From an uncultured virus (IMG/VR IMGVR_UViG_3300034018_000714) (Duplodnaviria > Heunggongvirae > Uroviricota > Caudoviricetes): 30,326 bases of DNA. The notes beneath the pieces were generated by a model. That model was not told the origin of the DNA. It saw only the letters and a program-made list of their open reading frames with translations, and searched no databases. The translations under genes and the position numbers were made by a program. Shown one piece after another: positions 15,346 through 30,326 of the stretch (its first letter is position 1; each line of letters starts with the position of its first letter). The stretch lies in the IMG/VR virus record IMGVR_UViG_3300034018_000714. One strand, given 5' to 3'.

Positions 15346-15375
15346 GTGCTTTATCCGCCTACAGAGGAGTACACC

Positions 15376-15945: not shown

Positions 15946-16163
15946 GTAGGTGCATACCCGTTGAAGACATCTTAGGAACCTCAGAGGTTGCTGAGGTGCT
16001 CGGTGTCAGCAAGCAACGCATTCACTCACTGCGTCAGATGAATGAGTTCCCAGAGCCTGTGGTGCAGTTAGCATCCACTCCTTTGTGGGATCGTAAAGAT
16101 GTTGTATCATTTTTGGCAATATGGAAACCATGGAAGGTAATCAACAATGAGTTACAGATATGA
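15942..16163 (+). CDS. AlpA/excisionase-like HTH DNA-binding protein
   Basis: LGTSEVAEVLGVSKQRI...FPEPV..L...PLW. Confidence 0.8.
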   Translation: MSRCIPVEDILGTSEVAEVLGVSKQRIHSLRQMNEFPEPVVQLASTPLWDRKDVVSFLAIWKPWKVINNELQI

Positions 16164-16302
16164 ATGTCCATCGTGCAAGGTTGCCATGAGTACGAATCTC
16201 TCACTATCAACTCCGCCAGTGCACAAGTGCCAGAAGAAAGCCAACAGGGTGATCCCGTTGGAACTGGTAGAGAAGACAAAAGAAGAGCCCCCCACCGAAT
16301 AG
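16147..16302 (+). CDS. small zinc-ribbon-like protein (51 aa)
   Basis: YRYECPSC...PVHKC; missing from ORF track. Confidence 0.5.
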   Translation: MSYRYECPSCKVAMSTNLSLSTPPVHKCQKKANRVIPLELVEKTKEEPPTE

Positions 16303-16317
16303 GCAGGGGGCTTCTTC
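16282..16317. terminator. hairpin at convergence of + and - gene blocks (probable terminator)
   Basis: GAAGAGCCCCC...GGGGGCTTCTTC with pyrimidine-rich tails on both strands. Confidence 0.6.
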
Positions 16318-16328
16318 ATTGTTGGTTG

Positions 16329-16706
16329 CTACTCCACGCTGTCGGGGAATGGGAACTTGCGAGGACTGTTCGTAGAGACGAAGAAGTCAACACCACCCCA
16401 CACACCGTTACGCATGTCGTTCTGCTTTGCAAAGTTAAAACACTCTTTACGAACGGTGCATTGAGAGCAGAGAGCCTGAGCCTGAGCCACCATCATCGCA
16501 CGAGTGTTGTTGCGCTGTGCATTCTCGGTGAAGAAGATGGGAGTCATCTCAGACTGTCCCTTGCACTTGGCATGATCCCTCCATCGTCCATCATCCTCAA
16601 ACTTGAGGCTAGGAAGTTCAATGAAGTTGGTTGTGTCGTAATCCGTCAGGCGTACACGGCGGACGACAGGGGGCTTGACGCCCCCTGCCTCTGTAACCGC
16701 ATCCAT
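16329..16706 (-). CDS. whiB: WhiB-family transcription factor
   Basis: WRDHAKC..IFF..A.ALCSQCTVRKEC...GVWGG. Confidence 0.9.
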   Translation of the reverse strand: MDAVTEAGGVKPPVVRRVRLTDYDTTNFIELPSLKFEDDGRWRDHAKCKGQSEMTPIFFTENAQRNNTRAMMVAQAQALCSQCTVRKECFNFAKQNDMRNGVWGGVDFFVSTNSPRKFPFPDSVE

Positions 16707-17728
16707 CAGGCGAACACCAACTGCTTGATGGCGTCCAAGACCACACGGTCTTGCTCACCAGTCTTGCCAGTGATGCCATTGAGCATGTTGCGCTCAACAC
16801 GGGAGTTGTCAGCGCCTGCGTAGTGGTGCTGGTAGGTGTTCCAGCACTGGAGGACTCCAAGCGCAGTGCCTCGCCAAGGAGAGACCATTGGGTCACTCTT
16901 GTAGAGTTGGTGCAGGAGTTCCTGCTTGTTCTCAGCACGAGCCTTGACCTGAGGACGGATGTCCAAGTCAGTTGACAATGGCACGAGGCGCTCCACGATG
17001 GCTTTGAACTCGTTCTCGGTCACCTGCTGTGTGGAGAGGCGCTCAAGTTCAAGCATGATGTCGTCTGTGTACTCATGGATGAGACCAAGAGCGTCACGGA
17101 CTGTCTGCAACTTGCCGATGGAGTGCTTGCTGTGGCGCACCTTGTGCTTGGCTGTCTTCTCACCGAGGGCACCAGCGAGCGTGTTATCACACACGACCAC
17201 AGTGGACACCAACTGGAAGGTTGATGACAGGGTGCCGTCATGGCTGGTGCAGGCAAGGAGGTGAGGACGGATGTCAAAGCCTGATGGCGTTTTGATCGTC
17301 TCAGGCAATTCCACTTGCACATACGCCTTGCCACCTTGACGAAGGAGACCAGCACCGCCGATGGCGAGGTCGTTGTCGTCAACGAGGTTTGCAACGGTGT
17401 CAAGGAGCCACTTCTTGTACTGGTGAACTTGGTAGGAGGACTTGAAGATGTTGAACACCGTGTTGTCATCCGAGCGGACGATTGCCTTGCGAGCCTTGTC
17501 TTCTTTGTAGTGGATGCCACCACCTGCTGGCATTCCTACGAACACTGGAGCCTCAATGGCTGTCCAGTTGAAGAGACGGCGGAGGACATCATCCACAGGA
17601 ATCGCTCCCGTGTAGTGGTTGGGCTCGGCACCTTGTGATGACTCCTTGTAATGCCACGCATTACCTCGCTGTTCGCTGAATCCAACAAGGATGTTGGTGT
17701 TGAGCCATTCGGTAGTTTCTCTTGACAT
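16706..17728 (-). CDS. DUF932-family phage/plasmid protein
   Basis: KAIVRSD, AGLLRQG, LLACTSHDG, VVVCDNTL, VRHS. Confidence 0.85.
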   Translation of the reverse strand: MSRETTEWLNTNILVGFSEQRGNAWHYKESSQGAEPNHYTGAIPVDDVLRRLFNWTAIEAPVFVGMPAGGGIHYKEDKARKAIVRSDDNTVFNIFKSSYQVHQYKKWLLDTVANLVDDNDLAIGGAGLLRQGGKAYVQVELPETIKTPSGFDIRPHLLACTSHDGTLSSTFQLVSTVVVCDNTLAGALGEKTAKHKVRHSKHSIGKLQTVRDALGLIHEYTDDIMLELERLSTQQVTENEFKAIVERLVPLSTDLDIRPQVKARAENKQELLHQLYKSDPMVSPWRGTALGVLQCWNTYQHHYAGADNSRVERNMLNGITGKTGEQDRVVLDAIKQLVFA

Positions 17729-17810
17729 GGTTGGTTACTTTCTATGTTTGGTTGTTGTGGTTGTTAGTACCACACGAATGAATCTATCCGTGTGGTTGTT
17801 GCTTTGGCAA

Positions 17811-18014
17811 CTAGGGTTGTTTCTTTTTTGTGGGCTCGTAGGTGGCGATAGCGACACCAGAGATCGCAAGGGCTCCTGAGACAATCAGGGTGATGGGCTG
17901 TCCATACAGGAAGATGTTCATGAACAACCCTATATAGATTCCCAGTGCGTACAGAGGGAAGGACAGGGGAACCTGCACTCTCCTCTTGAACTTCTGTGGG
18001 TCAGTTACCCGCAT
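17811..18014 (-). CDS. small membrane protein
   Basis: Two hydrophobic segments; GGAGG upstream. Confidence 0.55.
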   Translation of the reverse strand: MRVTDPQKFKRRVQVPLSFPLYALGIYIGLFMNIFLYGQPITLIVSGALAISGVAIATYEPTKKKQP

Positions 18015-18301
18015 GTGTCCTCCATTTCATTGTCATTGATCCAGTCCACGAATGCGAACAGGTGCAAGGCGTCCACCACATTGATGGCACGAACTGATGT
18101 TTCGTTGCGGAAGGTCACACCATTTGGTAGTTCAAGCATTGCGGAGGATTCGTTAGCAACGACCTTCTCAATGGCTTCCACTGCCACGGGCACCATGTAC
18201 TGGGGCACAGGTGGAAAGCAGTTGCTGGTCAAGTGCATGCTTACGGCGGTCTTCAAGTCCTTTGTGAACTCGTATGTGTCGTATGCGGTTAGGTATCCCA
18301 T
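18005..18301 (-). CDS. hypothetical protein
   Basis: AAGGAGG RBS; HL.SN.FPPVP motif. Confidence 0.7.
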   Translation of the reverse strand: MGYLTAYDTYEFTKDLKTAVSMHLTSNCFPPVPQYMVPVAVEAIEKVVANESSAMLELPNGVTFRNETSVRAINVVDALHLFAFVDWINDNEMEDTCG

Positions 18302-18311
18302 GTTGTCCTCC

Positions 18312-18545
18312 TTAAAGAACTGTCGTCTCTGGCGAGATGAGTTGCTGTTTGATTAATTGTTTGATGAGCGCCTCAACATTTGCTTGAGCATCAAGCACTG
18401 AGAAGGCGTCCACTGGAATGGTTACTGTGATCAGGTGTCGCTCAAGGACATTGGGGGTGCCACACTTCTCGCAGACACCAAGCACATCAAAGTGGTTGTA
18501 GTCGGCTTCGCATGAACGGCACCAGAACGGTAGTTGGTTAATCAT
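18312..18545 (-). CDS. small zinc-ribbon protein
   Basis: AAGGAG RBS before ATG 18545; CRSC..CEKCG. Confidence 0.65.
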   Translation of the reverse strand: MINQLPFWCRSCEADYNHFDVLGVCEKCGTPNVLERHLITVTIPVDAFSVLDAQANVEALIKQLIKQQLISPETTVL

Positions 18546-18555
18546 TTGTTTCTCC

Positions 18556-18798
18556 TTAGAGGTATTCGGCTTCATCAAGGCTGATGAATGTGATGTCTTT
18601 TTCTTCGGGGTCTTCATCAAAGAGTCCCCATGATGCAGTGTCCTCATCGGGCACTAGTTCAACGGTGACGCTTCCCTTGTGCTTACGGAAGGTCTCTTCA
18701 ACCTTTGCGTATGCCATGTCCCACGCCTCGTCTTCGTCTATTGCATCGTCAATTTCAATGTCTGCATCCCATGCAATTCTGAACTTGTAAATGGTCAT
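18556..18798 (-). CDS. hypothetical acidic protein
   Basis: AAGGAG RBS. Confidence 0.7.
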   Translation of the reverse strand: MTIYKFRIAWDADIEIDDAIDEDEAWDMAYAKVEETFRKHKGSVTVELVPDEDTASWGLFDEDPEEKDITFISLDEAEYL

Positions 18799-18807
18799 TG
18801 TGTCTCC

Positions 18808-19362
18808 TTACGCCAATGAATCTTCTAGGTCATTGAGGGTATGTCCCTCTTGTTCTAACCACAACTTAAATACTTCTTCTGAACCAGTAGGCACGAGCAC
18901 GCTCACGGCTACCGAGAACAGATTGGATGTCGGGTCAAACACCAGCGCCACAACGCACGGTGGGTTCAATTCTTCGTTGACCATTCGTGTTGACAGATCA
19001 TTGAACAGCGCCTTGCGATCTGCGATGGGGTCACCCCATGAACCAGTCGTCCATCCACCAAGGACTTCTGTGAATCCCTCAATGGTTGTTTCGTAGTGCC
19101 CACGCCATGCATCATTGCTGATGTACTCACGCTTTATTTTTTCGTTGTGGTATTCGTCCCCGTACTCATCAGTGCGGAAGGCGTCTCCAATGAATAACTG
19201 CTTCACACCACCATTAGAGAACACGAAGATGACCTTTGACGATCCGTCAATGTCTTCCCCGTAGCACTGGTAGCAGAAGTAGGCGTCAACGATGTTGGAG
19301 AAGACACTGCCATCGTCAGTGTCAAACTCCCCTTCGCATGCTTTGCAATTAAATGTTGTCAT
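18808..19362 (-). CDS. hypothetical protein with N-terminal Zn finger
   Basis: AAGGAG RBS; CKAC..CYQC. Confidence 0.7.
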   Translation of the reverse strand: MTTFNCKACEGEFDTDDGSVFSNIVDAYFCYQCYGEDIDGSSKVIFVFSNGGVKQLFIGDAFRTDEYGDEYHNEKIKREYISNDAWRGHYETTIEGFTEVLGGWTTGSWGDPIADRKALFNDLSTRMVNEELNPPCVVALVFDPTSNLFSVAVSVLVPTGSEEVFKLWLEQEGHTLNDLEDSLA

Positions 19363-19631
19363 TGTGTCTCCTTTATTGGCTCAATCTCTTGAGTGTTGTT
19401 GATGTAGTAACCAAGGATGTTGGTTCCGTGTTTAATGTCCCACCATTGCTTGTGTGTTACCTCAAGCACGAGGATGTCTTGAATGTCCTCGGTGTCACCA
19501 AGGCGCTCGTAAATAATGCGGTCGTGGTCATCAATCTCTTGTGGTGTGTCACCGATGATGAACATGACCACATCTTCACCACCAGTTTCACTAGTCCATG
19601 TAACTGGGGCGAATGCTCCGATAGTTGTCAT
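19359..19631 (-). CDS. hypothetical protein
   Basis: AAGGAG RBS, ATGA coupling. Confidence 0.7.
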   Translation of the reverse strand: MTTIGAFAPVTWTSETGGEDVVMFIIGDTPQEIDDHDRIIYERLGDTEDIQDILVLEVTHKQWWDIKHGTNILGYYINNTQEIEPIKETQ

Positions 19632-19873
19632 TTGATCTCCTTGTTAAGTGATGTTGTGCGAAGAACAGAGTCTTCAAATGGTCGCACCCAGTCAAGGTCA
19701 ATGGACTGGATGACCACGACTCTGCCGTCAGTCAGTCGGAATGTCTCAGCGCCAGTGTCATCGTCACTGTCTAAGAACACCCCGCCGTCCAGTTCCTCGT
19801 AGGTGTACTGGTTGCCGTTGTTGGCATCGGGGATCAGTTGATCCTCTTCGTAGTTGCGGATGATGGTTGTCAT
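19628..19873 (-). CDS. hypothetical protein
   Basis: AAGGAG RBS, coupling. Confidence 0.7.
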   Translation of the reverse strand: MTTIIRNYEEDQLIPDANNGNQYTYEELDGGVFLDSDDDTGAETFRLTDGRVVVIQSIDLDWVRPFEDSVLRTTSLNKEIK

Positions 19874-20037
19874 TAGTTGTTCTCCTTTTGTTGTTCTTCG
19901 TACAGCAGTTCTGCGATCTCGTGTCGTGCTTCTTGAAGCAGTCTCACCAATCGTTTGTTACGCATTCCATGTAAGTCTGCGATAGACATTTGAATCTTGT
20001 AATCAATTTCTTTGAGGTTGAGTTGGTATGCGTTCAT
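19873..20037 (-). CDS. hypothetical protein
   Basis: TAATG coupling at both ends. Confidence 0.6.
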   Translation of the reverse strand: MNAYQLNLKEIDYKIQMSIADLHGMRNKRLVRLLQEARHEIAELLYEEQQKENN

Positions 20038-20345
20038 TATTCGCTTTCTTCTTCGGTGTAAGTCTCTACTTGAACTTGAATGGGTCGTGCCCATGGGTAC
20101 TCGGTCACGAAGTAACCGATGCGGTTGACAAGGTGGTAACCACTGACGATGGCTGTGCCCTCATCAGTGTCTACCCATGTCCATACGAGGTTCTCAGGCT
20201 GTGAGAGGACGAACGCAATGTCGTCTCCGTATGTCTCAAACAGGGTGCCGTTCCAGCCTTGGTCACCACTGATGTGGTTCTCAAGAGGCATGTACAGGCT
20301 CTCCCAAATGTCTACTTCTACTTCATGGATTGATGTGTTGCTCAT
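20037..20345 (-). CDS. hypothetical phage protein
   Basis: AAGGAG RBS; FETYG..VWT..GYHLVNRIGYFVTE.PW. Confidence 0.75.
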   Translation of the reverse strand: MSNTSIHEVEVDIWESLYMPLENHISGDQGWNGTLFETYGDDIAFVLSQPENLVWTWVDTDEGTAIVSGYHLVNRIGYFVTEYPWARPIQVQVETYTEEESE

Positions 20346-20379
20346 AATGAACTCCTTGGTTGGTTGTGGTGGTTGGTAT

Positions 20380-20474
20380 GGGCTGTGCCCTCAGAGTGCA
20401 TGGAGAAACAAAGGAGATAAGAACCCCATGCACCCTGAGCGCACCAGCGGTGTATTGTCACCGCTGAAGCGCCC
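20380..20474 (-). ncRNA. three-way-junction RNA-like element, copy 1
   Basis: GGGC / CAGCGGTG-loop-CACCGCTG / TGCGCTCAGGGTGCATGG...CCATGCACTCTGAGGGCA / GCCC. Confidence 0.6.
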
Positions 20475-20480
20475 TCTGTC

Positions 20481-20681
20481 TTACTTATAGGCGTTTGAGT
20501 AAGACGAGATCTCTTGTTCACGCTCATGCCGTTTGGCAATCGCTACTGCTATGTCAAGACGAGTGCTGTCAGAGGCATCGTTGATGTCTCTCCAGTCTTC
20601 GTCAGTCCAGTTCTCGGTGTTGACCACGAGGATGTCTGTTGCATCCCCGTAGTCACCGTCCACACTAAAGAAATGTTCCAT
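20481..20681 (-). CDS. hypothetical protein
   Basis: GAGGAG RBS, TGATG coupling. Confidence 0.65.
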   Translation of the reverse strand: MEHFFSVDGDYGDATDILVVNTENWTDEDWRDINDASDSTRLDIAVAIAKRHEREQEISSYSNAYK

Positions 20682-21133
20682 CAGAATGGCTCCTCATCTG
20701 CGTTGATGACAGGCACACCAATGACCTCGTTCACTGCGTTGCCGACTGCCATCCAGTCCACATCGTTGCAGTCACTCAGTGATTGCCAGTCCGCTGTGCG
20801 GTACACAGCGTCCCATTCTTCATCAGTGAGACGGCGGTTGGCATCACGCTCGGCATCCTCACGACACCATGTGACACCAGTGAACTTGAAGTGGTCACGG
20901 ATGGAGGAGATAAGCGCACGACCGATTTCCTGACCCTCTTCAGTGTTGGGGTCAATGCCTGTGAAGATCTTGTTGACCTCGTCCAGTCCGTGGTAGGTGA
21001 TGCTCCAGTCATCAGCGACAGCCTCGTTGATGTCCAAGATGAATGGTCGTAAGACCTCCTCAAGGATGGGTGTAGGTGATTGGTCTGCTGGGTGCTCAAT
21101 GTTGATAATGAGCGTTGCGTTTGATGTTTCCAT
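20681..21133 (-). CDS. hypothetical acidic protein
   Basis: AAGGAG RBS before ATG 21133. Confidence 0.7.
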   Translation of the reverse strand: METSNATLIINIEHPADQSPTPILEEVLRPFILDINEAVADDWSITYHGLDEVNKIFTGIDPNTEEGQEIGRALISSIRDHFKFTGVTWCREDAERDANRRLTDEEWDAVYRTADWQSLSDCNDVDWMAVGNAVNEVIGVPVINADEEPF

Positions 21134-21143
21134 GATGGCTCCT

Positions 21144-21341
21144 TTACTTGTTGTAATTAGTTGTTGTGCTCTCAACGAGCGTTGCTTTGTCTACGCAGTA
21201 GCGGTCACCTGAGAAGTCCTGCACTACGACTGCATCACACTTTGCGTGGTAGTCCACGGTGTTCCACAAGATGACACTCCCAAGAGCGAGAGCGACTCCT
21301 ATGAGCAGATAGATGATGTTGATTAATGTTTCTTGTTTCAT
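21144..21341 (-). CDS. small membrane protein
   Basis: N-terminal TM helix; AAGGAG RBS. Confidence 0.65.
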   Translation of the reverse strand: MKQETLINIIYLLIGVALALGSVILWNTVDYHAKCDAVVVQDFSGDRYCVDKATLVESTTTNYNK

Positions 21342-21664
21342 TGGTTGGCTCCTTCAGTTATGCGCTTCCACCCTATGTGGTTGCAGTAGTACGACCTGCC
21401 GTTGATAGTGACCTCGTCACCCACCGACATTGCCGTGTGTGTTCGGTTCTCAGGGAGTACTGGCTCCAGCACTCTCCAGAATGAACCTTTGTAGAGGTTG
21501 GTGTCCCGCCACACTTTGTCCAGCAAGTCAGTGTCATTGAGGATGTTGCCCTCGCTGTGGACATTCGCAAAGTCGTAAGAGACGGTCACCGATGTGATCT
21601 TCTTCCCGAACCCAAGCGCATCCTTGAATGCTTTCCATGTGACTGTGACTTCGTATGTGCTCAT
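21338..21664 (-). CDS. hypothetical phage protein
   Basis: RTHTAMSVGDEV.I....Y.C...GW (YodL-like SVGD motif). Confidence 0.7.
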   Translation of the reverse strand: MSTYEVTVTWKAFKDALGFGKKITSVTVSYDFANVHSEGNILNDTDLLDKVWRDTNLYKGSFWRVLEPVLPENRTHTAMSVGDEVTINGRSYYCNHIGWKRITEGANQ

Positions 21665-21858
21665 TGATTGTTCTCCTTTTGTTCTAGTTCTGCGATTGCT
21701 CGCTCTGCGTTGTTTGCGTTGATGATGTGTCGTGCCGATGCTTCGTAATCATTCTGTGTGACAGCCACCTTTGAGAATCCTTCGTTCCACTTCATGTAGA
21801 GGAACAAGGCATCAATGATGGTGTCCAGTGACTGCTTGCTGAGTTGTTCTGCGCTCAC
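21661..21858 (-). CDS. hypothetical protein
   Basis: AAGGAG-GTG, coupling. Confidence 0.6.
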   Translation of the reverse strand: MSAEQLSKQSLDTIIDALFLYMKWNEGFSKVAVTQNDYEASARHIINANNAERAIAELEQKENNQ

Positions 21859-22154
21859 TGGTCGTCTCCTTCAGCGAGGACGAGTGCGTAGTCGTCAACG
21901 AGGTCAACCCACCAGCCAGCACCCACTGAGAACTTGTCTCGGTGTTCTGCGATGCACTTGTGAAGCCAAGCCAAGTCCTTCTCGTCAAGGTAGAAGAAGA
22001 TGTCTTCATCGTTGATGCCGAACGAGTCGGTAGTTGCGTTGGGATCGTCATGGTCGTACTGACCGAACGAGATGTAGACATCTTGGTAGCCGTCAGGACT
22101 GTCGTCCCACACGATGCCACACTCAATGCCTCGGTAGATATTTGTTGTTGTCAT
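21855..22154 (-). CDS. hypothetical acidic protein
   Basis: AAGGAG RBS before ATG 22154. Confidence 0.7.
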   Translation of the reverse strand: MTTTNIYRGIECGIVWDDSPDGYQDVYISFGQYDHDDPNATTDSFGINDEDIFFYLDEKDLAWLHKCIAEHRDKFSVGAGWWVDLVDDYALVLAEGDDQ

Positions 22155-22178
22155 ATTGTTCTCCTTGTTGGTTGCTTT

Positions 22179-22259
22179 GGACTGCGTCCCATGAGCACTG
22201 CGAGGTGTCCCGACCCCACAGTGCTCGTGGCACGCCACGGGGTTGCCCCCGTGACGCCC
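22179..22259 (-). ncRNA. three-way-junction RNA-like element, copy 2
   Basis: GGGC / TCACGGGG-GCAA-CCCCGTGG / CGTGCCACGAGCACTG...CAGTGCTCATGGGACG / GTCC. Confidence 0.6.
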
Positions 22260-22282
22260 TACCTGAGCACCACCCCAGTTTG

Positions 22283-23821
22283 TTAGCCGACCCAGTCAGC
22301 GAGCAATGAGGCGACTAGCGAACCAGCCTCCACATTGAGGTCTTCAGCGTTGCCGTCAAGCACCGCCGAGAGAACCTCCTGCTTCGCATTGAGCAGGTTG
22401 AAGAGTCGGTCGTCAATGGTCAACTCACCATCGGTACGAGCACCTGTGAGGTGCCAGCAAGTGACAGATTCTGTCTGACCGAAGCGATGGCATCGGTCAG
22501 TGGCTTGCTGTAATTCCGCAGGTGTCCACGGTAACTCCACGCTCACCCACTGGTTGGCACGGGTGAGCGTGAGACCAACACCAGCGGAGGTGTAGTTGCC
22601 CACGAACACGCTCGCACGACCCGACTGGAAGTCGTCCACTGCTTGTTGCTTGTCAGCATCACTCATGCCACCGAGGACACTCACGACATTCCATCGTGGG
22701 TCTTCAACAGCACGGCGCTCACACTCTTCAATGAGAGCGGTGAGCACTGCACGGTGGTGACCGAAGACGACCACTGGCTGGTCACCTTCAATGATGGACT
22801 CAAGATGCTCAATGGCGTGCTTGACCTTGACCTTTGCAATCTCCTGTCGCAGGGCTGACAACTGCGTGATGGTCTCAGCACGAGACACACGAAGCACAGC
22901 CTCACGACCACCCTTGCCGTACACCCAAGCGAGGAAGTCTTCCTCAATGCGGAGGTAGTCACGCAACTCAGTCTTGCTGAGAGCGATAGCAACCTGAGCA
23001 CTGCGCTTGGCTGGCAACTCGGTGAGCACATCAGCCTTCTTACGGCGGATGTAGCAGGTGCCACGCAACTTCTCATGCAACTCTGCGCTGTTGGTTGAAC
23101 CATTGAATGTCCAGCCGAACGCATTCTTGATGGGGTCGCAGTAGCGCCACTTGAATGAACCAGCAGAGCCGAACACAGGGTTCAACTGACCGATCGTGTC
23201 AAGCAGTGGCACCAACTCCACAGGACGGTTGACCGCTGGCGTGCCTGAGGCGAGCACCACATACCCTTCGGCAGGGATGCCACGAGCGATGCCCTGCAAT
23301 GCGATGGTGCGCTTTGCCTTGCCGTTCTTAAAGCGGTGTGCCTCGTCTACCAGCAGAGCACCGAAGCCCTCCTTGTTGAGAGCCTGAGCCCAGCCAGCGA
23401 TGGATGCGTCACCAACGATGGTGACCTGTGCACCGTTGCACTGGGTGGCACGGGTGCCCTCAAGAATCTCAACGGTCAATGCGTTGTTGGTGAACTTGTC
23501 AATCTCACGCTTCCACTGGAGTCGCAGTGACGGTGGCACGCTGATGAGGACACGGAGACCCTGCTCAACAGCCTTGAGAGCCACGGCAATGAGTTGTGGT
23601 GTCTTGCCCAAGCCCATCTCGTCACCGAGGATGACACGGCGTTGCTTGAGGGCATACGCCACGCCAGCACGCTGGTACGGGAGCAGTGGGAGGGCAAGGT
23701 CAAAGTCAAGGTCAAAGTCATGCGCTCCTGAAAGCGCAGACAACTCAGGGCACACATCAATGGGTGATGCAGTGCGGACAGCGGACGCCAGTAAGGCGTC
23801 CAATTCGGAACGGTGGGACAT
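22283..23821 (-). CDS. SNF2/SWI2-family (HARP-like) helicase
   Basis: LLPYQ..GV, GDEMGLGKT, VDEAH, SGTP.VNRP, GVGLTL, PWTP..LQQA.DRCHRFGQ. Confidence 0.92.
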   Translation of the reverse strand: MSHRSELDALLASAVRTASPIDVCPELSALSGAHDFDLDFDLALPLLPYQRAGVAYALKQRRVILGDEMGLGKTPQLIAVALKAVEQGLRVLISVPPSLRLQWKREIDKFTNNALTVEILEGTRATQCNGAQVTIVGDASIAGWAQALNKEGFGALLVDEAHRFKNGKAKRTIALQGIARGIPAEGYVVLASGTPAVNRPVELVPLLDTIGQLNPVFGSAGSFKWRYCDPIKNAFGWTFNGSTNSAELHEKLRGTCYIRRKKADVLTELPAKRSAQVAIALSKTELRDYLRIEEDFLAWVYGKGGREAVLRVSRAETITQLSALRQEIAKVKVKHAIEHLESIIEGDQPVVVFGHHRAVLTALIEECERRAVEDPRWNVVSVLGGMSDADKQQAVDDFQSGRASVFVGNYTSAGVGLTLTRANQWVSVELPWTPAELQQATDRCHRFGQTESVTCWHLTGARTDGELTIDDRLFNLLNAKQEVLSAVLDGNAEDLNVEAGSLVASLLADWVG

Positions 23822-23852
23822 GGATTACTCCTTGGTTATGTTGGTGCTCGGT

Positions 23853-23933
23853 GAGCGATGCTATCGCTCTCACTACCTATTCACACTTTATGAATAGGCA
23901 CTGAGAGCGCCACCGCCGAAGCGGTGACACCTC
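23853..23933 (-). ncRNA. three-way-junction RNA-like element, copy 3
   Basis: GGTG / TCACCGC-TTCG-GCGGTGG / CGCTCTCA-GTGCCTATTCA...TGAATAGGTAG-TGAGAGCG / CATC. Confidence 0.6.
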
Positions 23934-24010
23934 CTGTGCATTTGTATCACCGCCTCACCACACAGTAATGAGGGACGGTGTCTAGGGAGTTTGATGTCCC
24001 TGAGATTCTG

Positions 24011-24679
24011 TTACTTCTTGGCGCACTCAGAGCCGAGACCACGAGCACGAGATGCTTCATCGGTGAGGTGACGACCACACTTACCACACACACCAAGTTC
24101 ACGCCCGTAGCGAGCCTGCGCCTCGGTCAGTTCGTCAGTTGATAGTGAGACCAGCGCCTCAACGATCCGCTTGGTCTCGGCATCAGTCACACGGAATGGT
24201 GCCTGTCCACCGAGGACTCGTAGCACCTCCTTCTTGCCGTTCTTGAGGTGAACGAAGAAGAAGTCAAGGTCGTTGTTACCAGTGAGCGATGGGATGGCGT
24301 AGTAGCCACGGTCAACCGTCTCAAGAGCGTCAGCCTCGTAGAGGCAGTCACCCTTGGCGTGGTATGTGCGCCAGCCGTAGTTCGCCTGCACAGCGAAGCC
24401 AGCACCAGTGTCAACCTCACGGTTGCACAAGGCGCACTCCTTGGCGAACTTGTTGACGATAACACGACCCTCAGGCAAGTGAGCATGCTCAGGGTTACGG
24501 GGCGCAGGGATGGACTTCAACTTGTCAATGATTTCGCTCGCAGACTTTGCGGTCAACTTGTTGATGCCCTTCTCTTCTATGTACTTGTCAATGTCGTCAA
24601 TGCCGAGCACCGAGAGGCGCTCCTGCAATAACGAACGGACGAATGACTGTTGCTTGGGGGTGATGGTGGTGGCTGACAT
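24011..24679 (-). CDS. DUF6011-like Zn-finger protein
   Basis: C-terminal YG..LG.CG.CGR.LTDE.SR.RG.G.EC; AAGGAG RBS. Confidence 0.8.
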   Translation of the reverse strand: MSATTITPKQQSFVRSLLQERLSVLGIDDIDKYIEEKGINKLTAKSASEIIDKLKSIPAPRNPEHAHLPEGRVIVNKFAKECALCNREVDTGAGFAVQANYGWRTYHAKGDCLYEADALETVDRGYYAIPSLTGNNDLDFFFVHLKNGKKEVLRVLGGQAPFRVTDAETKRIVEALVSLSTDELTEAQARYGRELGVCGKCGRHLTDEASRARGLGSECAKK

Positions 24680-24705
24680 TGATTGTTCTCCTTTACTAGA
24701 ACGGG

Positions 24706-25008
24706 TTATTGGTTGAGGTATTGGTAGGCGTACTCGTCAGGGTCGTTCTCACGCAGGTACTCCTCGTACCTTTGCTCGTCCTCCATTAACTGGCGCTCGG
24801 TTGCTAGTTCGTCACGGTAGACACAGCCAGCGCATGTGGCACGCTCGCAGTCCTCGTCAAATACCCAAAAGGGTACGAAGGGTGACTGCTTGACACCGAT
24901 TAATTCTGAGCACTGTGAGCAGGTGCTGGGGAACTCAATGTCTGAGTTCTCCAACACATCGGACTCACTCACGAGCCATGGCTGAATGGGTTGTTCGTAT
25001 GGGTTCAT
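24706..25008 (-). CDS. hypothetical Zn-finger protein
   Basis: CSQC..CAGC; AAGGAG RBS. Confidence 0.65.
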   Translation of the reverse strand: MNPYEQPIQPWLVSESDVLENSDIEFPSTCSQCSELIGVKQSPFVPFWVFDEDCERATCAGCVYRDELATERQLMEDEQRYEEYLRENDPDEYAYQYLNQ

Positions 25009-25223
25009 TGGTTCTCTCCTTCATTGGGGCGCCACACATGTGTGTCTGTCTCGTCACCGACATAGAGCGCACTGTATGCACCCTCACGGGACTGGAGGTT
25101 GTAGTACTCCTCCACATACGGTTGCTTGAGCAGTGACTCAGCAACCAGTGCCTCTGCCTCTTGCTGTGACTCCGCTATGACGATGGCACGCACGGTGACA
25201 TCAATGCTGAATGGTTGGCTCAT
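25005..25223 (-). CDS. small hypothetical protein (DpnD/PcfM-like)
   Basis: VTVRAIVIAESQQEAEALV; AAGGAG RBS. Confidence 0.65.
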   Translation of the reverse strand: MSQPFSIDVTVRAIVIAESQQEAEALVAESLLKQPYVEEYYNLQSREGAYSALYVGDETDTHVWRPNEGENQ

Positions 25224-25702
25224 TGGGTTACTCCTTCGTAGTAGAACTCACGCACAGCATCAGACAGAGAGCCTGACGCACTGCCAAGGTCAAGGATGGG
25301 GTTGTCGGCATCGTCAGCGAAGCGCAGGACACTCGCCACGATCTCCTCGTCACCTTCCATGGAATCGCTCACCACAATGGAGAGTCGCACACGCCTGCGC
25401 TGTGGGTGCTGGCTCGGCGCTCCATCAACAGTGCCGTCCGCATTGAGCGGTGATGCCCAACCAGCGGTCACGATGACCGCAGAGTCAAACAGGTGGACAG
25501 TACTGCGGACTGACTTCTTCTTGAGAAGGTCGTACACATCCTTGTCAGTGTCCAGCAGTGACAGCGTGCCACCAGCGTTGATGCCGTACACACGAGCATC
25601 ACTGAAGTTGAATGCATCGTCAGTGATGGACAGCGCACGGTGCACCCTGTCCTCTGTGTCCAGTGTGAATGTTCCGAAGTCATCGGTCTTGAAAATTGTC
25701 AT
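25220..25702 (-). CDS. hypothetical phage protein
   Basis: AGGAG RBS; GWASP...PSQHPQRRRVRL. Confidence 0.75.
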   Translation of the reverse strand: MTIFKTDDFGTFTLDTEDRVHRALSITDDAFNFSDARVYGINAGGTLSLLDTDKDVYDLLKKKSVRSTVHLFDSAVIVTAGWASPLNADGTVDGAPSQHPQRRRVRLSIVVSDSMEGDEEIVASVLRFADDADNPILDLGSASGSLSDAVREFYYEGVTQ

Positions 25703-25738
25703 TGGGTTCTCCTGTTGTTGTTGTTGTTGTTGGTTGTC

Positions 25739-26071
25739 TCAGCCGTACACGAGTTCGTTGAAGAATGCGTACTGCCAAATGGCATCGTGGTCAGTGTGGT
25801 CGGTACCGCACTCCTTGAGGTCGTCCCAGTCACCACCGTTTTGAATCCACAGTGCGATGCCCCTGAGGCAGGACTCCGTGTCAAAGTTGTAGCGGTAACC
25901 GTTGTTGATGAGGTAGGTCTCACCCTCAATGTCGGTGTGCACTTCGTACTCGTCATCAGCCACCCAGTAGCGACAGCCGTCAGAGGACTTGATGTAGTCA
26001 ATGACCTCATCGCTCACCATGAGGGTGTACGAGATGGTCAGTGGGTGGCGTGTGTTGGTTGCTGTGCTCAT
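25739..26071 (-). CDS. hypothetical phage protein
   Basis: AAGGAG RBS; YW...D..D.DAI.QYA.F.E.VYG C-terminus. Confidence 0.75.
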   Translation of the reverse strand: MSTATNTRHPLTISYTLMVSDEVIDYIKSSDGCRYWVADDEYEVHTDIEGETYLINNGYRYNFDTESCLRGIALWIQNGGDWDDLKECGTDHTDHDAIWQYAFFNELVYG

Positions 26072-26355
26072 TTGTTGTTCTCCTTGTTGATGGTTTCAAT
26101 TTGTTTGATGGTGAGTTGGTTGTCCATGTCAATGATGGAATAGCGAATCTTCCATCCTTGCTTCTCAATGTGACGCATGCGCTTGTCCATGGCGTCAACG
26201 CTCACGGAGTTACCGAAGCGTTTCCATGGCTCGCTCGCATCCTTGCGCCAGTACGAGACGACACGCTTCGCATGGCGCCCCGTGGTCACACCCTTGAACG
26301 GCTGTAGGACGCCGTCAGGGTCAGTGAAGGTTGGGTATGTCTCAAGTGTTGTCAT
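26068..26355 (-). CDS. hypothetical protein
   Basis: AAGGAGG RBS before ATG 26355. Confidence 0.65.
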   Translation of the reverse strand: MTTLETYPTFTDPDGVLQPFKGVTTGRHAKRVVSYWRKDASEPWKRFGNSVSVDAMDKRMRHIEKQGWKIRYSIIDMDNQLTIKQIETINKENNK

Positions 26356-26365
26356 TGGCGCCTCC

Positions 26366-26911
26366 TTAAGCGTTGACTTCTGATTGTTGCAATTTGTTGA
26401 TGACCGCCTCAAGCATGAGGTTCATCCAGTACTTGTCATTGAGGTGGAATGGTTTGACCTCAAATGACTCACCGAGGAATGCGTTGAGGGTTGACACCTT
26501 GCGCTCCAGTTCGTGGTGCTCTGCCAACTTGCGCTGAATGAGGCGCTCAGTCTTCAGCAACTCGTACTGGAGGAAGTTGTCCATGGTCAGCAGGACAGCC
26601 TTGCCCAACTCATCGTCATAGCGATGCACGGGGTTCGCAATCTGACTGGGCAAGAACGACTCGGTGTAGGTGCTATCCACGATGCGGTCAGGCTGTGCTG
26701 GGATCAATTCACCGTCATAACCAGTGTGCTCGCCTTGAGCAGACTTGAAGAAGACACGGACAACGGTGACCGTCTTCATCGTCTTGCGCTGTGAGCCGTA
26801 GGTACGGCGCTCACCGAATCCAGTGATGCGGTAGTAGCCGTTGTGGTTGTTGACCTCAAACAGCGTGTTCGGGTCATTCGCTACAGCGAGGGTGATGTCT
26901 AGAAGTTTCAT
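26366..26911 (-). CDS. hypothetical protein
   Basis: AAGGAG RBS before ATG 26911. Confidence 0.7.
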   Translation of the reverse strand: MKLLDITLAVANDPNTLFEVNNHNGYYRITGFGERRTYGSQRKTMKTVTVVRVFFKSAQGEHTGYDGELIPAQPDRIVDSTYTESFLPSQIANPVHRYDDELGKAVLLTMDNFLQYELLKTERLIQRKLAEHHELERKVSTLNAFLGESFEVKPFHLNDKYWMNLMLEAVINKLQQSEVNA

Positions 26912-26931
26912 TGGTGCTCCTTGTTGATAGT

Positions 26932-27009
26932 GGGCGATTGCCCTCAGAAGACACCGACCGAAGCCGATGTCCTCTGAGGACACCACAGGCTGGGGGAGCC
27001 TGTGATGCC
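26932..27009 (-). ncRNA. three-way-junction RNA-like element, copy 4
   Basis: GGC / TCACAGGCT-CCCCC-AGCCTGTGG / TGTCCTCAGAGGACATCGG-CTTCGG-TCGGTGTCTTCTGAGGGCA / GCC. Confidence 0.65.
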
Positions 27010-27020
27010 TTGGGGGTCAG

Positions 27021-27191
27021 TTACAGATACACGGTGATGGCTCGGTCAACCTCCCCGATTTCCCAGTGGTGGTTGTTCGTCTCTTCAGGGTCAAAGTCAC
27101 GAGCGATGGCGACTGCCTGCTCCTGTGACTCAGCCTCCACCACTGCGGTGTATGTCTGCCCGATGATTACTTGAACTTCGTATTTTGCCAT
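27021..27191 (-). CDS. small hypothetical protein (DpnD/PcfM-like)
   Basis: AAGGAGG RBS; KYEVQV...YTAVVEAESQEQAVAIA. Confidence 0.7.
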   Translation of the reverse strand: MAKYEVQVIIGQTYTAVVEAESQEQAVAIARDFDPEETNNHHWEIGEVDRAITVYL

Positions 27192-27204
27192 TGTGTGTGC
27201 CTCC

Positions 27205-27507
27205 TTAGGCGTTGGTTGATGGGTCGGTGAGTAGGTCGTCATTGATGGTCTTCTGCAACTTGCGAGCCCAACGCTCAACCTTCTTGCTGAGTTCGTTGGT
27301 GTCCGTGAATCGGAATGGGTAACTGGTGTGCTGGAACCAGTCACCATCGTGCACATAGTGCTCGCTCAGGTCGTTGTCATCGTCCGTGTAGAACGGTGTG
27401 TCCAGCAACTGCTCAAGTGACTCAAGGTCACTGGCGATGCGGAGCGCAGTGGTCACCAAACGGTGGCGCAGGCGCTGTTCCTTGGTCATGTCTTCTGTGA
27501 TGTTCAT
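27205..27507 (-). CDS. hypothetical protein
   Basis: ATGA coupling with upstream gene. Confidence 0.65.
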   Translation of the reverse strand: MNITEDMTKEQRLRHRLVTTALRIASDLESLEQLLDTPFYTDDDNDLSEHYVHDGDWFQHTSYPFRFTDTNELSKKVERWARKLQKTINDDLLTDPSTNA

Positions 27508-27773
27508 TGGGTTACTTCTTTCTTGTTGTTGATTGCTGTGAGCCACTCGGTCTCGGTCACTGTCTGACCGTTCACGATGTAAAAGGCGTTGGTGACTTGA
27601 CCGTCAATGACAGGCGCCAGTTGGTAGACATGGGCGTTGTTCTCTTCCTCCATGTGCTGGGCAATCCATTGCTCGGCAAGGAATGCGTTGTCATGGTAGG
27701 TAGTGACTTGTGCTGTGCAGTCACCCTTGCGGATGCCAGCCACTCTGACTCGTGTTTCTGTTGGTGTTTCCAT
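27504..27773 (-). CDS. hypothetical protein
   Basis: AAGGAG RBS before ATG 27773. Confidence 0.65.
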   Translation of the reverse strand: METPTETRVRVAGIRKGDCTAQVTTYHDNAFLAEQWIAQHMEEENNAHVYQLAPVIDGQVTNAFYIVNGQTVTETEWLTAINNKKEVTQ

Positions 27774-27792
27774 TGTTGTTCTCCTTGGTTGT

Positions 27793-28335
27793 TCAGAATG
27801 GGTAGAGGTCATCGTTGACCCAGTAGCGGTTGTTCGGAATCTGTGGCTGAGCGTTGCTGTCGCCACGCTGACGCAGTCGCATCGTGACGCAGGCGTCCAC
27901 CAGTTCTCGGTATGCCTGCTCAGTGGTCGGTACGAATGGAATCTCTTGGCGATACTCAAGGTCTCCAGCGTTCAGCAACCACAGTGGCAACTCAAGGCGA
28001 CCATTGTGTTCTGCCCAGTGCCACAAGGCATCCCAGCCCTGCGATGAGCCGATTGGCATCTCGCCACCCTTGTTGTCACCGTCACACCAGTTCGCACTGT
28101 CACCGACCCACACTGACAAGCCCCTGCCCTTCTTGTCGGTCACAAGAATCGGCAACGCAGTGCCTGCCCACTTGCGGTCAATGTTGGCGTCAAGGCGAGC
28201 GCAGTACTTCTCAAACTTCTCGCTCGGTGACCATGAGTACTTGTATCGGAACTCAACGACACCGATGTCACCGAAGACATCGGACAGTTCCTTGATTCGC
28301 TTGGTCTTCGTAATTGCGTATTGGTAAACGCCCAT
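27793..28335 (-). CDS. hypothetical protein
   Basis: AAGGAG RBS. Confidence 0.7.
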   Translation of the reverse strand: MGVYQYAITKTKRIKELSDVFGDIGVVEFRYKYSWSPSEKFEKYCARLDANIDRKWAGTALPILVTDKKGRGLSVWVGDSANWCDGDNKGGEMPIGSSQGWDALWHWAEHNGRLELPLWLLNAGDLEYRQEIPFVPTTEQAYRELVDACVTMRLRQRGDSNAQPQIPNNRYWVNDDLYPF

Positions 28336-28354
28336 TGTGGTTCTCCTTTGTTGT

Positions 28355-28428
28355 GGACAATGTCCTCACCATGCACCGACCGAAGCCGATGCACAGTGAG
28401 GACACCAGCGCCGTGAGGCGCTGATGCC
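28355..28428 (-). ncRNA. three-way-junction RNA-like element, copy 5
   Basis: GGCA / TCAGCGCC-TCAC-GGCGCTGG / TGTCCTCACTGTGCATCGG-CTTCGG-TCGGTGCATGGTGAGGACA / TGTC. Confidence 0.65.
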
Positions 28429-28451
28429 GAGTTGATCAATTTGTGTGTGTG

Positions 28452-28853
28452 TTACTTCTGAAAGTACGAATGAATCTCAACCATCCCAGCACCGACCAGC
28501 ACCTTGTTGGCGCTGGCAAGTGCAGTGCGACAGCCGTTGATGGTCTTCGTGATGTCAGGGTGATTATCACCCTCACGGCGCATCTCAATGTGATTCTCCA
28601 AGTAGTAAGCAACCTCACGAGCGAACGCTTCAACAGCGCCCAGCGTGAGGTGTGCCTCGTAAGTGCTTGAGGACTTGCGCTTGACAACGACTGATGCATT
28701 GTCAACCGCAATGGTTACCTCGTGAAGTTCAGGCTCTTCTGTTGGGTCAACTTGTGACTCAAGAATCGCTTGAAACTCACCTCGCACATGTGAGTTGAAT
28801 CGGACTGGATGGTGAATGGTCACTGTGCCGTCATCGTTCAGTGTGTAGTTCAT
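28452..28853 (-). CDS. hypothetical protein, first gene of the - strand block
   Basis: AAGGAG RBS before ATG 28853. Confidence 0.7.
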   Translation of the reverse strand: MNYTLNDDGTVTIHHPVRFNSHVRGEFQAILESQVDPTEEPELHEVTIAVDNASVVVKRKSSSTYEAHLTLGAVEAFAREVAYYLENHIEMRREGDNHPDITKTINGCRTALASANKVLVGAGMVEIHSYFQK

Positions 28854-28874
28854 GCGGTGCTCCTTGTTAAGGGG

Positions 28875-29047
28875 AACGGATTGTCCGTCCCCAGCACCCA
28901 TCAAACGAGTTGTTGCCAGACTCTGGCGTTCAATTACTTGCCTCCCAAGTGATGCGCCAGTTACTGGCAACAACTCTCATGGGGGAGGCTTCCATGCTGA
29001 TGAATGCTGGGCACGGAGCCGAGGGGCTTATGCCCCCCGACACCGTT
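28875..29047 (-). ncRNA. three-way-junction RNA-like element, copy 6 (expanded P3 arm)
   Basis: AACGG / TCGGGGGC-ATAA-GCCCCTCGG / TCCGTGCCCAGCATTCATC...GATGGGTGCTGGGGACGGA / CCGTT, with inner 13-bp stem GAGTTGTTGCCAG/CTGGCAACAACTC. Confidence 0.5.
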
Positions 29048-29910
29048 GCATGACCTGACCGCATCACCATGTGGGGGCTTTCCAATGACTTAGAGCCACA
29101 GCCAGCGCAAGCACTGACTGTTTTATCCCGATGATGCGGTATGCGAATCGTTTCCCCGTCATGGGTGAAGTTTGGCGCCAAACACTTTCGGTGTTTCAGT
29201 AACGCCAATTCATCTGTGTAGGTCACAGTGTTGCCACTGTCCGTTGGTAGTTAGTCCATAAAGCGACAATGTGTCGCACCGCTGAAGCCATCGCACCCTC
29301 GCACTCGTAACTGATTCGCCTACACCATTGCCTGTCCTGCAAAGGCTCCTTGGAGCAAGTGACCCACTAAGGGGTCAACGACCCACTATGGGGTCAACAC
29401 AATGCAGTGTCAGCGTTGGACTGGGCGTCAGTGGGTCATCTCGCAGTATCCGCACCATGTCGCCCGTAATCTCCGCACCGTGAGGTGAGAAGAATGCGAG
29501 CGCCAAATAGGTATGTGAGGACTTACGAGAGCCGAACGAATGCCAAATGAATCTTCTGATTCGCATATCTCTTGTAGATAGTTCGCCCAACTTCTTACTA
29601 ACTCATGTCCAGCAGGAAAGGCTTCGCAGGCTTGCGCCTCCACCATTCCTGCCTGTGCGCTTGGCGCATCTGAGTGTCTCCCAGCGAATGCGAGCCATGG
29701 GCTCTGCTGAGGAAGAACATCTTCGGAACTATCTGAAATTGTCAAGGGACGAACTGGATTCCATGAACCGTGGAGGCAACTGAATCTGAACTGCAATGCC
29801 CAAGGACTTAGGGCAGGACAGGAACAGGGCGCTATGGGAGTGGGCAAAGCCCAGCCATCAAGAACACGGCGGAATCTTCAGTTGGAAAAGAGCGCCCCGA
29901 AGGGCACAGC
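29048..29910 (-). ncRNA. candidate large structured non-coding RNA or long structured leader
   Basis: No credible CDS; nested long-range helices and UUCG/GNRA tetraloop hairpins on the - strand. Confidence 0.5.
29361..29398. repeat. tandem 19-bp repeat x2
   Basis: GACCCACTAAGGGGTCAAC / GACCCACTATGGGGTCAAC. Confidence 0.85.
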
Positions 29911-29913
29911 AAA

Positions 29914-29944
29914 AGTCTCCCACAAGGGGGGGGTGGTGTGTCAA
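29914..29944 (-). promoter_or_regulatory. possible promoter for the - strand block
   Basis: TTGACA-19 nt (contains C8 run)-GAGACT; AT-rich tract upstream; spacing and -10 are non-optimal. Confidence 0.4.
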
Positions 29945-30326
29945 TAGTTTTCAAACAATTTTTCTGATTTCTTTTGAGCCATATGTGGCAAGGGTCTGAG
30001 GGACAGAGGGCGCTGGAAAGGGCGCCCAAACCGTTCCTACGGGCTCTGAATGCCATTGAGGGGGACAGGGAAGGGAGGGGGGGAGAGAGGGGCTGAGAGG
30101 GGCTCTGAGTGGGGTCAGAGGGGATCAAATGTGTGTGGGCTGGGCTGGGGAATGATTGGTGCTTGGTGGGGTACCTGTGGGGGTATACCTGCCCCCCTCG
30201 CCCTCTCGTGTGTGCCCCCGATTCCATAGCCCCAGCCGTAGTGCATGACCATGCAGTCATTTATGCATAAAAAGTGATCAATTTTGGTGATTTCCCTTAC
30301 GCCACAAGGGTTTCCGCCGATGTATG

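Follow-up and report, generated by a model that had tools for sequence, protein, structure and literature searches.

The early messenger RNA (mRNA) of bacteriophage T7 carries RNase III sites, named R0.3, R0.5, R1, R1.1 and R1.3. Other intergenic elements that recur or form stem-loops include the repetitive extragenic palindromic (REP) sequences and bacterial interspersed mosaic elements (BIMEs) of enterobacterial host chromosomes, which are shorter single palindromes present in hundreds of copies, REP being able to protect upstream mRNA from 3' exonucleases, and the putL and putR sites of phage HK022, two sites per genome that lie just after promoters and let RNA polymerase pass downstream terminators. 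In T4-type phages, the PeSL cassettes are described as linker sequences for cassette shuffling (PMC2839356, PMC4122927). Here we examine a stretch of 30,326 nucleotides (nt) of DNA from an uncultured virus of the Caudoviricetes (IMG/VR record IMGVR_UViG_3300034018_000714), referred to below as the window. An initial annotation, made from the letters alone, had noticed six copies of a structured RNA element in the gaps of an operon on its minus strand. The six sites, here named E1 to E6 in order of their coordinates, are one cis-acting RNA family of about 85-105 nt, which a freshwater actinophage has on the sense strand of its early-operon mRNA.

The T7 signals and the present elements share several related hairpins between the genes of one early transcript, with promoters upstream of that transcript and a terminator at its end, and a helix of about two turns, and in both a stable hairpin would remain at the 3' end of the upstream message. 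The present elements differ in having three abutting hairpins instead of one, a 4-nt toggle and an actinobacterial host; a mismatch in the place of the T7 internal loop occurs in only 15 of the 45 distinct copies that we aligned (these come from related phage contigs, many of them related to one another), and cleavage is here a candidate activity. Judged by the features of a T7-type site, the intercistronic position is present, and so is a helix of about 20-22 base pairs (bp), the length being 19-21 bp in 38 of the 45 copies. A canonical intrinsic terminator, that is, a GC hairpin followed immediately by a U-tract, is not what the elements form.

The likeness to PeSLs lies in repeated intergenic modules of about 100 nt that end at a ribosome site and stand between small early genes without relatives, and in the insertion, deletion and replacement of the flanked genes among related phages. 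In contrast to PeSLs, which carry a strong sigma-70-like promoter and a terminator stem-loop, the elements here have neither a promoter nor a U-tract, and their compensatory changes place them under RNA-level selection. REP sequences and BIMEs are likewise repeated extragenic palindromes transcribed in operons just after stop codons, but the family described here occurs only in a single operon of a single phage clade and has a fixed three-hairpin layout. Like the put sites, the elements contain two directly adjacent stem-loops that would act in cis on a phage early transcript; unlike them, they come in 4-9 intercistronic copies, and no terminator is predicted within the operon. T7 is already known to punctuate its early mRNA with structured RNA, and the three-hairpin, two-state architecture is a new form of this. 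We found no earlier description of the family in the literature, a search that did not cover three 2026 bioRxiv preprints on language-model intergenic mining.

Architecture of the element

The consensus reads, from 5' to 3', X1 (GGCA, GGCG or GGUG), hairpin A (from UCA to UGG), X'1 (UGUC, CGUG or CGCU), hairpin B (from CUCA to UGAG), X2 (GGCA, GACG or AGCG), a loop, X'2 (GYCC) and a final A. X2 and X'2 can form a third hairpin, C, of 3-7 bp directly after B. The base of hairpin A consists of conserved U.G, C-G and A-U pairs, kept in 38-45 of the 45 copies; the CUCA/UGAG base of hairpin B is kept in 32-44, and the wobble pair G52.U112 is fixed in 32. No residue is inserted at the A-B or B-X2 junction in any of the 45 rows. 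Hairpin A measures 6-10 bp (8-15 bp with its extension), and its loop is of the GNRA type in 19 copies and of the UNCG type in six.

Hairpin B, when extended by pairing of its flanking segments, keeps to the length given above, with an overall range of 17-23 bp, while its sequence varies freely and its loop measures 3-18 nt. At its base, 30 copies are fully paired and the other 15 have a G.G mismatch, a feature that the initial annotation had noted in three copies. Hairpin C shows compensatory changes, for example AACAUC/GAUGUU versus AGCAUC/GAUGCU, and CA-rich tails follow B and C. Complementarity to the AAGGAG ribosome site is found in some loops, as CUCCUU or CUCCCCC (the hairpin B loop of E1 at 20395-20420, and E4 with its relatives); other copies have C-rich loops.

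The archetype is E4 (26924-27013, minus strand), in which X1 (GGCA) occupies 27009-27006, hairpin A 27005-26983, X'1 (UGUC) 26982-26979, hairpin B with its C(UUCG)G cap 26978-26943, X2 (GGCA) 26942-26939 and X'2 (GCCC) 26935-26932.

The six sites in the window

Folded as minus-strand RNA, E1 to E5 have predicted energies of -48 to -60 kcal/mol, with z-scores of -5.3 to -9.0 against dinucleotide shuffles, and none of 200 shuffles equals them. When stretches of 90 nt are folded in steps across the whole window, these five come out as the most stable on the minus strand, and each gains about 10 kcal/mol in stability when folded as minus-strand in place of plus-strand RNA.

A covariance model, the check proposed in the initial annotation, was built from E4, E5 and four relatives only and used to search the full window with filters off. 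E4 and E5 rank highest, and the model retrieves E1 (E-value 1.7e-9), E2 (1.1e-7) and E3 (2.6e-6) after them, all on the minus strand; weaker reverse-strand shadows and then the first hairpin of E6 follow, and nothing is found in the plus-strand block. A second model, built from 34 matches, returns E1 to E5 at 57-81 bits and nothing else in the window. With the two models, the reverse-strand shadows score 19-25 bits, as against 30-98 bits for matches on the sense strand.

All six sites lie on the minus strand. E1 (20372-20475) scores 42.6 bits with the first model and 64.3 bits with the second, folds at z = -7.99 and has an 18-nt hairpin B loop that contains CUCCUU. E2 (22170-22262; 35.4 and 66.9 bits) lies just downstream of a helicase gene, caps its hairpin A with a GCAA loop, shows the G.G mismatch at the base of B, and differs from its counterparts in related phages by one compensatory pair in A and five in B. 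On the other side of that gene, which encodes an SNF2-type helicase, E3 (23851-23935; 29.9 and 56.8 bits, z = -7.09) lies just upstream; its hairpin C has 7 bp (GAGCGAU-AGC-AUCGCUC), and an A-to-G change in relatives is compensated in both alternative partners. E4 scores 98.1 bits with the first model and 81.2 bits with the second (z = -7.02). The canonical copy E5 (28346-28432; 90.2 and 78.6 bits, z = -8.98) lies between the genes 28452-28853 and 27793-28335, and shares with E4 a 47-nt stretch at 81% identity.

The leader of the operon holds the divergent site E6 (28875-29047), where a 196-nt unit folds at z = -7.47 into hairpin A with an AUAA loop, a long branched hairpin B of about 125 nt and hairpin C (GGGGACGGA-CAA-UCCGUUCCCC), with a four-segment toggle of ACGG/CCGU. 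The long hairpin contains about 118 extra bases, and the conserved UCA/UGG and CUCA/UGAG helix bases are lacking; the first model finds only the first hairpin (15 bits, E-value 0.014) and the second has no match. At the E6 position of the related contig L012 (3174-3264) there is a compact three-hairpin element with UUCG and GCAA loops and a short GCAA-capped hairpin B, and in a lake variant 28891-29010 is swapped for 28 letters that form a short GCAA-capped hairpin. Because the layout is the same and such a short GCAA-capped hairpin stands in both L012 and the lake variant, E6 appears to be a divergent family member with an expanded hairpin B. Of the shared architecture first claimed for six copies, then, five are clear from both models and from their fold z-scores, and the sixth scores only 15 bits and is divergent.

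The initial annotation called the elements a cis-acting phage RNA family that it could not assign, and this agrees with the search of Rfam, in which the whole window, on both strands, has no match at an E-value of 1 or below (hammerhead and other three-way-junction ribozymes and 6C RNA included). The alignment contains no conserved unpaired nucleotides able to form a catalytic core, and ARAGORN finds no tRNA or tmRNA-like gene. Neither a megablast search of the 9-kb region against cultured phages nor a blastn search of E4 against 50,697 cultured-phage records gives a match.

Covariation and strand

In the alignment of the 45 copies, 96.3% of the 1349 cells are standard pairs, a share that falls to 73.5% in shuffles and to 33-48% in slid controls. 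Of the 30 pairs, 27 have changed on both sides, and the covariation score is 0.718, versus 0.08-0.15 in slid controls, a value that none of 500 shuffles reaches; a smaller set of 27 copies gives the same picture. The observation that the sequences vary while the pairing is kept is thereby borne out with strong covariation. Comparison of counterpart copies in related phages yields 13 positions with compensatory changes, 14 that preserve pairing through a wobble and four with a mismatch in one member.

The 1215 helix cells include 191 G-U and 5 A-C combinations, and 97% of them can pair in the sense RNA as against 82% in antisense RNA. Because G-U so outnumbers A-C and the antisense strand pairs more poorly, the selected structure is, on the evidence of the alignment, RNA of the coding strand, as had been proposed earlier from the G-U pairs and the UUCG and GCAA loops of the minus strand.

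Several other identities were considered and rejected. A DNA cruciform or replication origin is disfavoured by the strand asymmetry. For a promoter inside the element, no fixed spacing is kept and the promoter scan has no match. For a tRNA-like punctuation mark read by RNase P, the GYCCA tail is found mostly base-paired, and P1 (the stem that X1 and X'2 can form) is too weak. A mimic of a CRISPR repeat does not agree with stems that covary freely and do not copy any one repeat.

Two competing folds

The four short segments can pair in two ways. X'1 has as possible partners X1, which extends hairpin A, or X2, which extends hairpin B; X2, the 4 nt that follow B, pairs either with X'1, to lengthen B to about 20 bp, or with X'2, in hairpin C. 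In an alignment that was fitted to one of the folds, the pairs of the B extension are 42-122 (UA in 25 copies, CG in 20), 43-121 (GC in 41, AU in 4) and 44-120 (CG in 17, UA in 16, UG in 12), without a single unpaired cell, and at the fourth position 30 copies pair and 15 have the G.G mismatch. For hairpin C, 93% of cells pair, with 120-139 being GC in 29 copies, AU in 13 and other combinations in 3. The data also allow the extension of hairpin A, but it relies on G-U wobble, and 22 of the 45 copies do not form its outermost pair. P1 is the weakest of the helices: 84% of its cells pair, the outer pair fails in 15 of 45 copies, and the changes are mostly of the wobble type.

Partition-function calculations predict the extended B with a probability above 0.5 in 23 of the 45 copies (mean 0.51). 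In the predicted ensembles, P1 goes with the extended B, and hairpin C with the extended A. The three-way junction is therefore predicted to be one of two near-isoenergetic states, the other being three stacked hairpins. The initial annotation had drawn the element as a three-way junction of P1, P2 and P3. Its P2 and P3 are our hairpins A and B, and its alternative pairing of GGCA with TGTC is present, the predicted ensembles being split between the two folds; hairpin C was overlooked, and the junction it described corresponds to one of the two competing folds only.

Position and distribution

All copies stand between co-oriented genes, after the stop codon of one and before the ribosome site of the next. 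The element starts 5-25 nt after the stop codon in most copies (in the window, X1 follows the stop codon at distances of 7, 11, 23, 24 and 76 nt), and the distance from X'2 to the start codon is 19-41 nt in 27 copies. The AAGGAG site follows the element after a gap of 5-25 nt, much as first described. The ribosome site has a predicted accessibility of anywhere between 0.26 and 1.0, which shows no relation to the fold. Among the gaps of more than 50 nt inside the minus-strand block, five of six hold a copy, the exception being 17728-17811; adjacent genes without an intervening element overlap or are at most 37 nt apart.

Members of the family were found in at least 15 viral or metagenome contigs by searches based on the helicase and by two pattern scans. 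The first scan of viral contigs gave 66 stretches, 6 of them true elements, with chance alone estimated roughly to produce about 55; from the second came 118 stretches, of which 80 were made into loci and 14 of these 80 were true. Related genomes have 4-9 copies each, always in one co-oriented stretch of 6-10 kb. The near-complete genome G002 (83.6 kb, searched with filters off) has four strong copies and a counterpart of E6 in one 6.5-kb stretch of one strand, and G003 has 8 copies in 8 kb; with default filters, a complete genome of 97 kb has nine copies within 25.8-35.0 kb and a complete genome of 94 kb has four within 83.3-89.2 kb. Elements flank the helicase gene on both sides in the window, in G002, in G003 (contig L182), in L102 and in L012. 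Among more distant helicase relatives (82 loci, 838 kb), copies are present only in L102 and L103, whose helicases are 76-77% identical, along with one marginal match.

Two features of these relatives can be noted beside the family. In L182 (from G003; 960-8215), each element is followed by a ribosome site inside a mini-hairpin, YCCUGAGGAGGY, in which CUGAGG repeats the 3' base of hairpin B. In L013, whose helicase is 38% identical, the near-perfect palindrome GTGCGTTACGGTAACGCAC occurs at three gene junctions (6790-6935, 7760-7900 and 9430-9575) beside motifs resembling GATATCCATATC; this intergenic palindrome system differs from the present family.

Cassette exchange beside the elements

The nearest record, G001, is 95-99% identical to the window in blocks split by replaced genes, and whole genes have been exchanged or lost in relatives and lake variants. 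Elements adjoin several of the break points, namely 28455-28872 (between E6 and E5), 23931-24009 (at the 5' edge of E3), 21850-22156 (immediately past E2) and 26054-26917 (immediately past E4). The gene at 27793-28335, which follows E5 here, has a 93%-identical counterpart in G002 that follows the counterpart of E4, and the homology blocks of this moved gene start at window position 28347 and at L185:5319, within about 10 nt after the element. Other replacements have no adjoining element (27220-27500, and the gap in G001 at 25235-25699). The deletion joints of two lake variants, 26054/26917 and 26053/28349, fall between similar CA-rich ribosome-site leaders (repeat family D8) and not inside elements, and most break points are in the ribosome-site leader or at stop codons, not within an element.

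The CA-rich leaders may themselves act as recombination sites. From this pattern, the elements would be modules separate from the cassettes, with shuffling a consequence and not their primary function. The suggestion that they are junctions for gene shuffling is thus met by an evolutionary pattern beside the elements, while the break points themselves mostly lie outside them.

The operon and its host

The window has two blocks of genes. Its plus-strand block (1-16000) encodes a UvsX-like recombinase, a Cas4-type exonuclease and a queuine tRNA-ribosyltransferase-like protein. The minus-strand block, which runs from about 29050 down to 16329, has some 30 small genes, nearly all without known relatives and each with a strong AAGGAG ribosome site. 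Among 28 operon proteins, the only Pfam matches above the cut-off are to DUF6011 and DUF932. The SNF2-type DNA helicase gene between E3 and E2 (22283-23821, minus strand) matches phrog_62 at 2e-97, and the last gene of the operon (16329-16706, minus strand) is WhiB-like (Pfam PF02467, E-value 8.5e-14, 52.3 bits with a cut-off of 23.6). Homologues of the DUF932 protein are found in 580 phage records, mainly of phages of Mycobacterium, Streptomyces, Microbacterium, Arthrobacter and Gordonia. Because of the WhiB gene and because the DUF932 homologues are mostly in actinobacterial phages, the host is very probably an actinobacterium. DNA of the phage was found in lake-water metagenomes by a search of sequencing runs.

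The operon is closed by two canonical intrinsic terminators with a GC hairpin and a U-rich tail (16232-16312, minus strand), and a third, with a UUCG cap and U-tract, lies in the leader (29907-29892, minus strand); all three were found by a terminator scan and direct reading. That scan gives 12 terminator-like matches and none at the elements, in agreement with the earlier remark that no copy is followed by a U-tract. Five promoter-like sites are found in 14000-30326, below the shuffle mean of 9.1, and none is within or after any element. Because the scan of the minus strand between 28168 and 16312 finds, apart from the promoter-like site in the gap 17728-17811, no promoter-like and no U-tract terminator site, we infer that the minus-strand block is a single transcript.

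Other observations concern the surroundings of the operon. About 300 nt upstream of E6, two tandem 19-nt repeats, each an inverted repeat (GTTGACCCC-NTAGTGGGTC; 29361-29398, minus strand), could be operators or the promoter of the early operon. Further upstream, a TTGACA hexamer (29944-29939, minus strand) is followed about 30 nt on by the leader terminator, a promoter-then-terminator order; this pair (29882-29944) sits in a region of about 1 kb without a convincing gene. A C-rich low-complexity tract with repeated CCCCTC/CCCTCT (30060-30150, minus strand) is non-coding and also lies upstream of the operon. An AAGGAG site precedes nearly every gene of the minus-strand block (16329-28853), and for most plus-strand genes (1-16000) a simple scan recognizes none; the two blocks may differ in translation or timing. 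The leader of the gene 25220-25702 is a pure CAA/CAACAA repeat, caaccaacaacaacaacaacaacagg (25703-25738, minus strand), without an element, and the gap at 17728-17811 has a promoter-like site (TTGCCA, an 18-nt spacer and TAGATT) before the DUF932 gene.

Proposed function

Our tentative preference, held with somewhat less than even confidence, is that the elements are intercistronic signals for processing or stabilization, comparable to the RNase III sites in the early mRNA of T7. The elements would punctuate the polycistronic early mRNA, with a double-strand-specific nuclease, probably host RNase III, recognizing the two-turn helix. A cut near the base of hairpin B would leave hairpins A and B at the end of the upstream message, as a block to 3' exonucleases, and hairpin C at the start of the downstream message, as a shield for its 5' end. 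The toggle would find its rationale here, as X2, freed by such a cut, could then fold into hairpin C at the 5' end so created. Even without any cut, the structures could still be barriers to decay and uncouple translation between gene blocks; as a side effect, the conserved modules would also lie at the edges of swapped gene cassettes.

Processing fits because of the helix of about 20 bp, the mismatch at its base in a third of the copies, the intercistronic position and the T7-like layout. A length of about two helical turns is the primary determinant for Escherichia coli RNase III, coaxially stacked short helices can provide that length, internal loops or bulges restrict cutting to one strand, and the 3' hairpin of a product shields it from 3'-5' exonucleases (PMC1540722). 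Of the four roles offered in the initial annotation, processing or stabilization would fit best, the elements being intercistronic, about 20 bp in helix length and U-less.

Several results weigh against processing by RNase III. No gene for RNase III or for a protein with a double-stranded RNA-binding domain (dsRBD) was found in five related records; a host enzyme would therefore be needed, the host being an uncultured one. In T7 sites an internal loop restricts cleavage to a single cut, and the 30 copies that are fully paired at the base of B have no such loop. Sequence is conserved within the helices (UCA/UGG, CUCA/UGAG, CAUCGG/UCGGUG and the fixed wobbles), which could equally mean a sequence-specific protein instead of RNase III. 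That there are two states is a prediction drawn from nearest-neighbour energies and from the way related copies covary, and for the toggle several of the X-segment types may each trace to one ancestral change. The 20 sequencing runs listed as holding the phage are of DNA from lake water, with none on record as RNA.

An extension of the processing idea, which we regard as unlikely, is that the element is a refolding device in which a single 4-nt segment moves between two partners: the intact RNA would offer a two-turn helix to the nuclease, and the cut products would snap into their own caps (A and B at the 3' end, C at the 5' end), so that cassettes, the helicase gene among them, would be excised as separately capped messages, each having a lifetime of its own.

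Alternative explanations

The conservation of sequence inside the helices, including G52.U112, would also be expected of operators for a sequence-specific RNA-binding protein, of phage or host origin, that would jointly control translation or stability of the gene blocks, and the toggle resembles the four-segment logic of attenuators, with a first segment 5-25 nt from the stop codon that a terminating ribosome could open and with CUCC or CUCCUU in some loops that is complementary to AAGGAG. We nevertheless doubt that the elements are such operators or ribosome-sensing translational switches: the Pfam search of the 28 operon proteins shows no RNA-binding domain, ribosome-site accessibility is unrelated to the fold, only some copies have loops that pair with the ribosome site, and the distances from stop codon to element (7-76 nt) and from element to start codon give no fixed geometry with either ribosome. 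The translational switch of the initial annotation is not supported, on the same grounds, as the ribosome site is inconsistently sequestered and the stop and start distances vary. About equally doubtful is the view that the elements are U-less intrinsic terminators or attenuators that grade expression along the operon. U-less terminators are reportedly present in the early region of actinophage phiC31, and in most copies a cluster of GC-rich hairpins does stand 5-25 nt after a stop codon. In one computational study, hairpin clusters within 80 nt of the stop codon are proposed to terminate without U-tails (PMC8355165); mycobacterial RNA polymerase, according to another report, needs a U-tract (PMC3993855). 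No copy of the element has one. Because the same operon ends in two U-tract terminators (with a third in the leader), the polymerase seems to use ordinary signals and the U-less elements are probably not terminators; moreover, with no promoter-like site after any element and 19-41 nt to the next start codon, efficient termination would silence the helicase and other genes, and the fixed 20-bp length and the toggle would be left unexplained.

Less probable than either of these is a linker acting at the level of DNA, as in PeSLs, to promote homologous recombination or cassette shuffling. The replacement of whole genes with several break points beside elements speaks for it, as do the move of the gene 27793-28335 from the E5 to the E4 position and the 47 nt shared by E4 and E5. 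A DNA linker would have no need of the compensatory changes, G-U asymmetry and GNRA and UUCG loops that indicate selection on RNA; furthermore, other replacements have no adjoining element, two deletion joints lie between leaders, and PeSLs have a sigma-70-type promoter that the elements are without. Equally remote, in our estimation, is the excision of RNAs of about 90 nt that would accumulate and have a role in trans, decoying a host dsRNA-binding or defence protein being one example. Many copies of the same shape and different sequence, the very stable folds and an early operon rich in genes without relatives would suit such RNAs, but no conserved unpaired nucleotides offer a binding face, and the strict position between stop codon and ribosome site is more simply explained by a role in cis. 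The put-like antiterminator that had also been proposed does not agree with the presence of 4-9 copies in each operon, within which no terminator is predicted for the polymerase to pass.

Implications

If the elements are processing signals, the model of T7 mRNA punctuation would extend to actinobacterial phages, and the element would be a compact, portable insulator for multi-gene constructs in actinobacteria. If the refolding device were true, it would be a cut-and-cap punctuation of mRNA not described for bacterial viruses, with ends that make cassettes exchangeable. The covarying toggle is a clean natural case of mutually exclusive RNA helices, and the family is a practical marker of the early region and of cassette boundaries in metagenomic phage contigs. 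A clade of freshwater actinophages with genomes of about 95 kb divides its early message with a conserved structured RNA that is absent from Rfam and has a core predicted to have two states.

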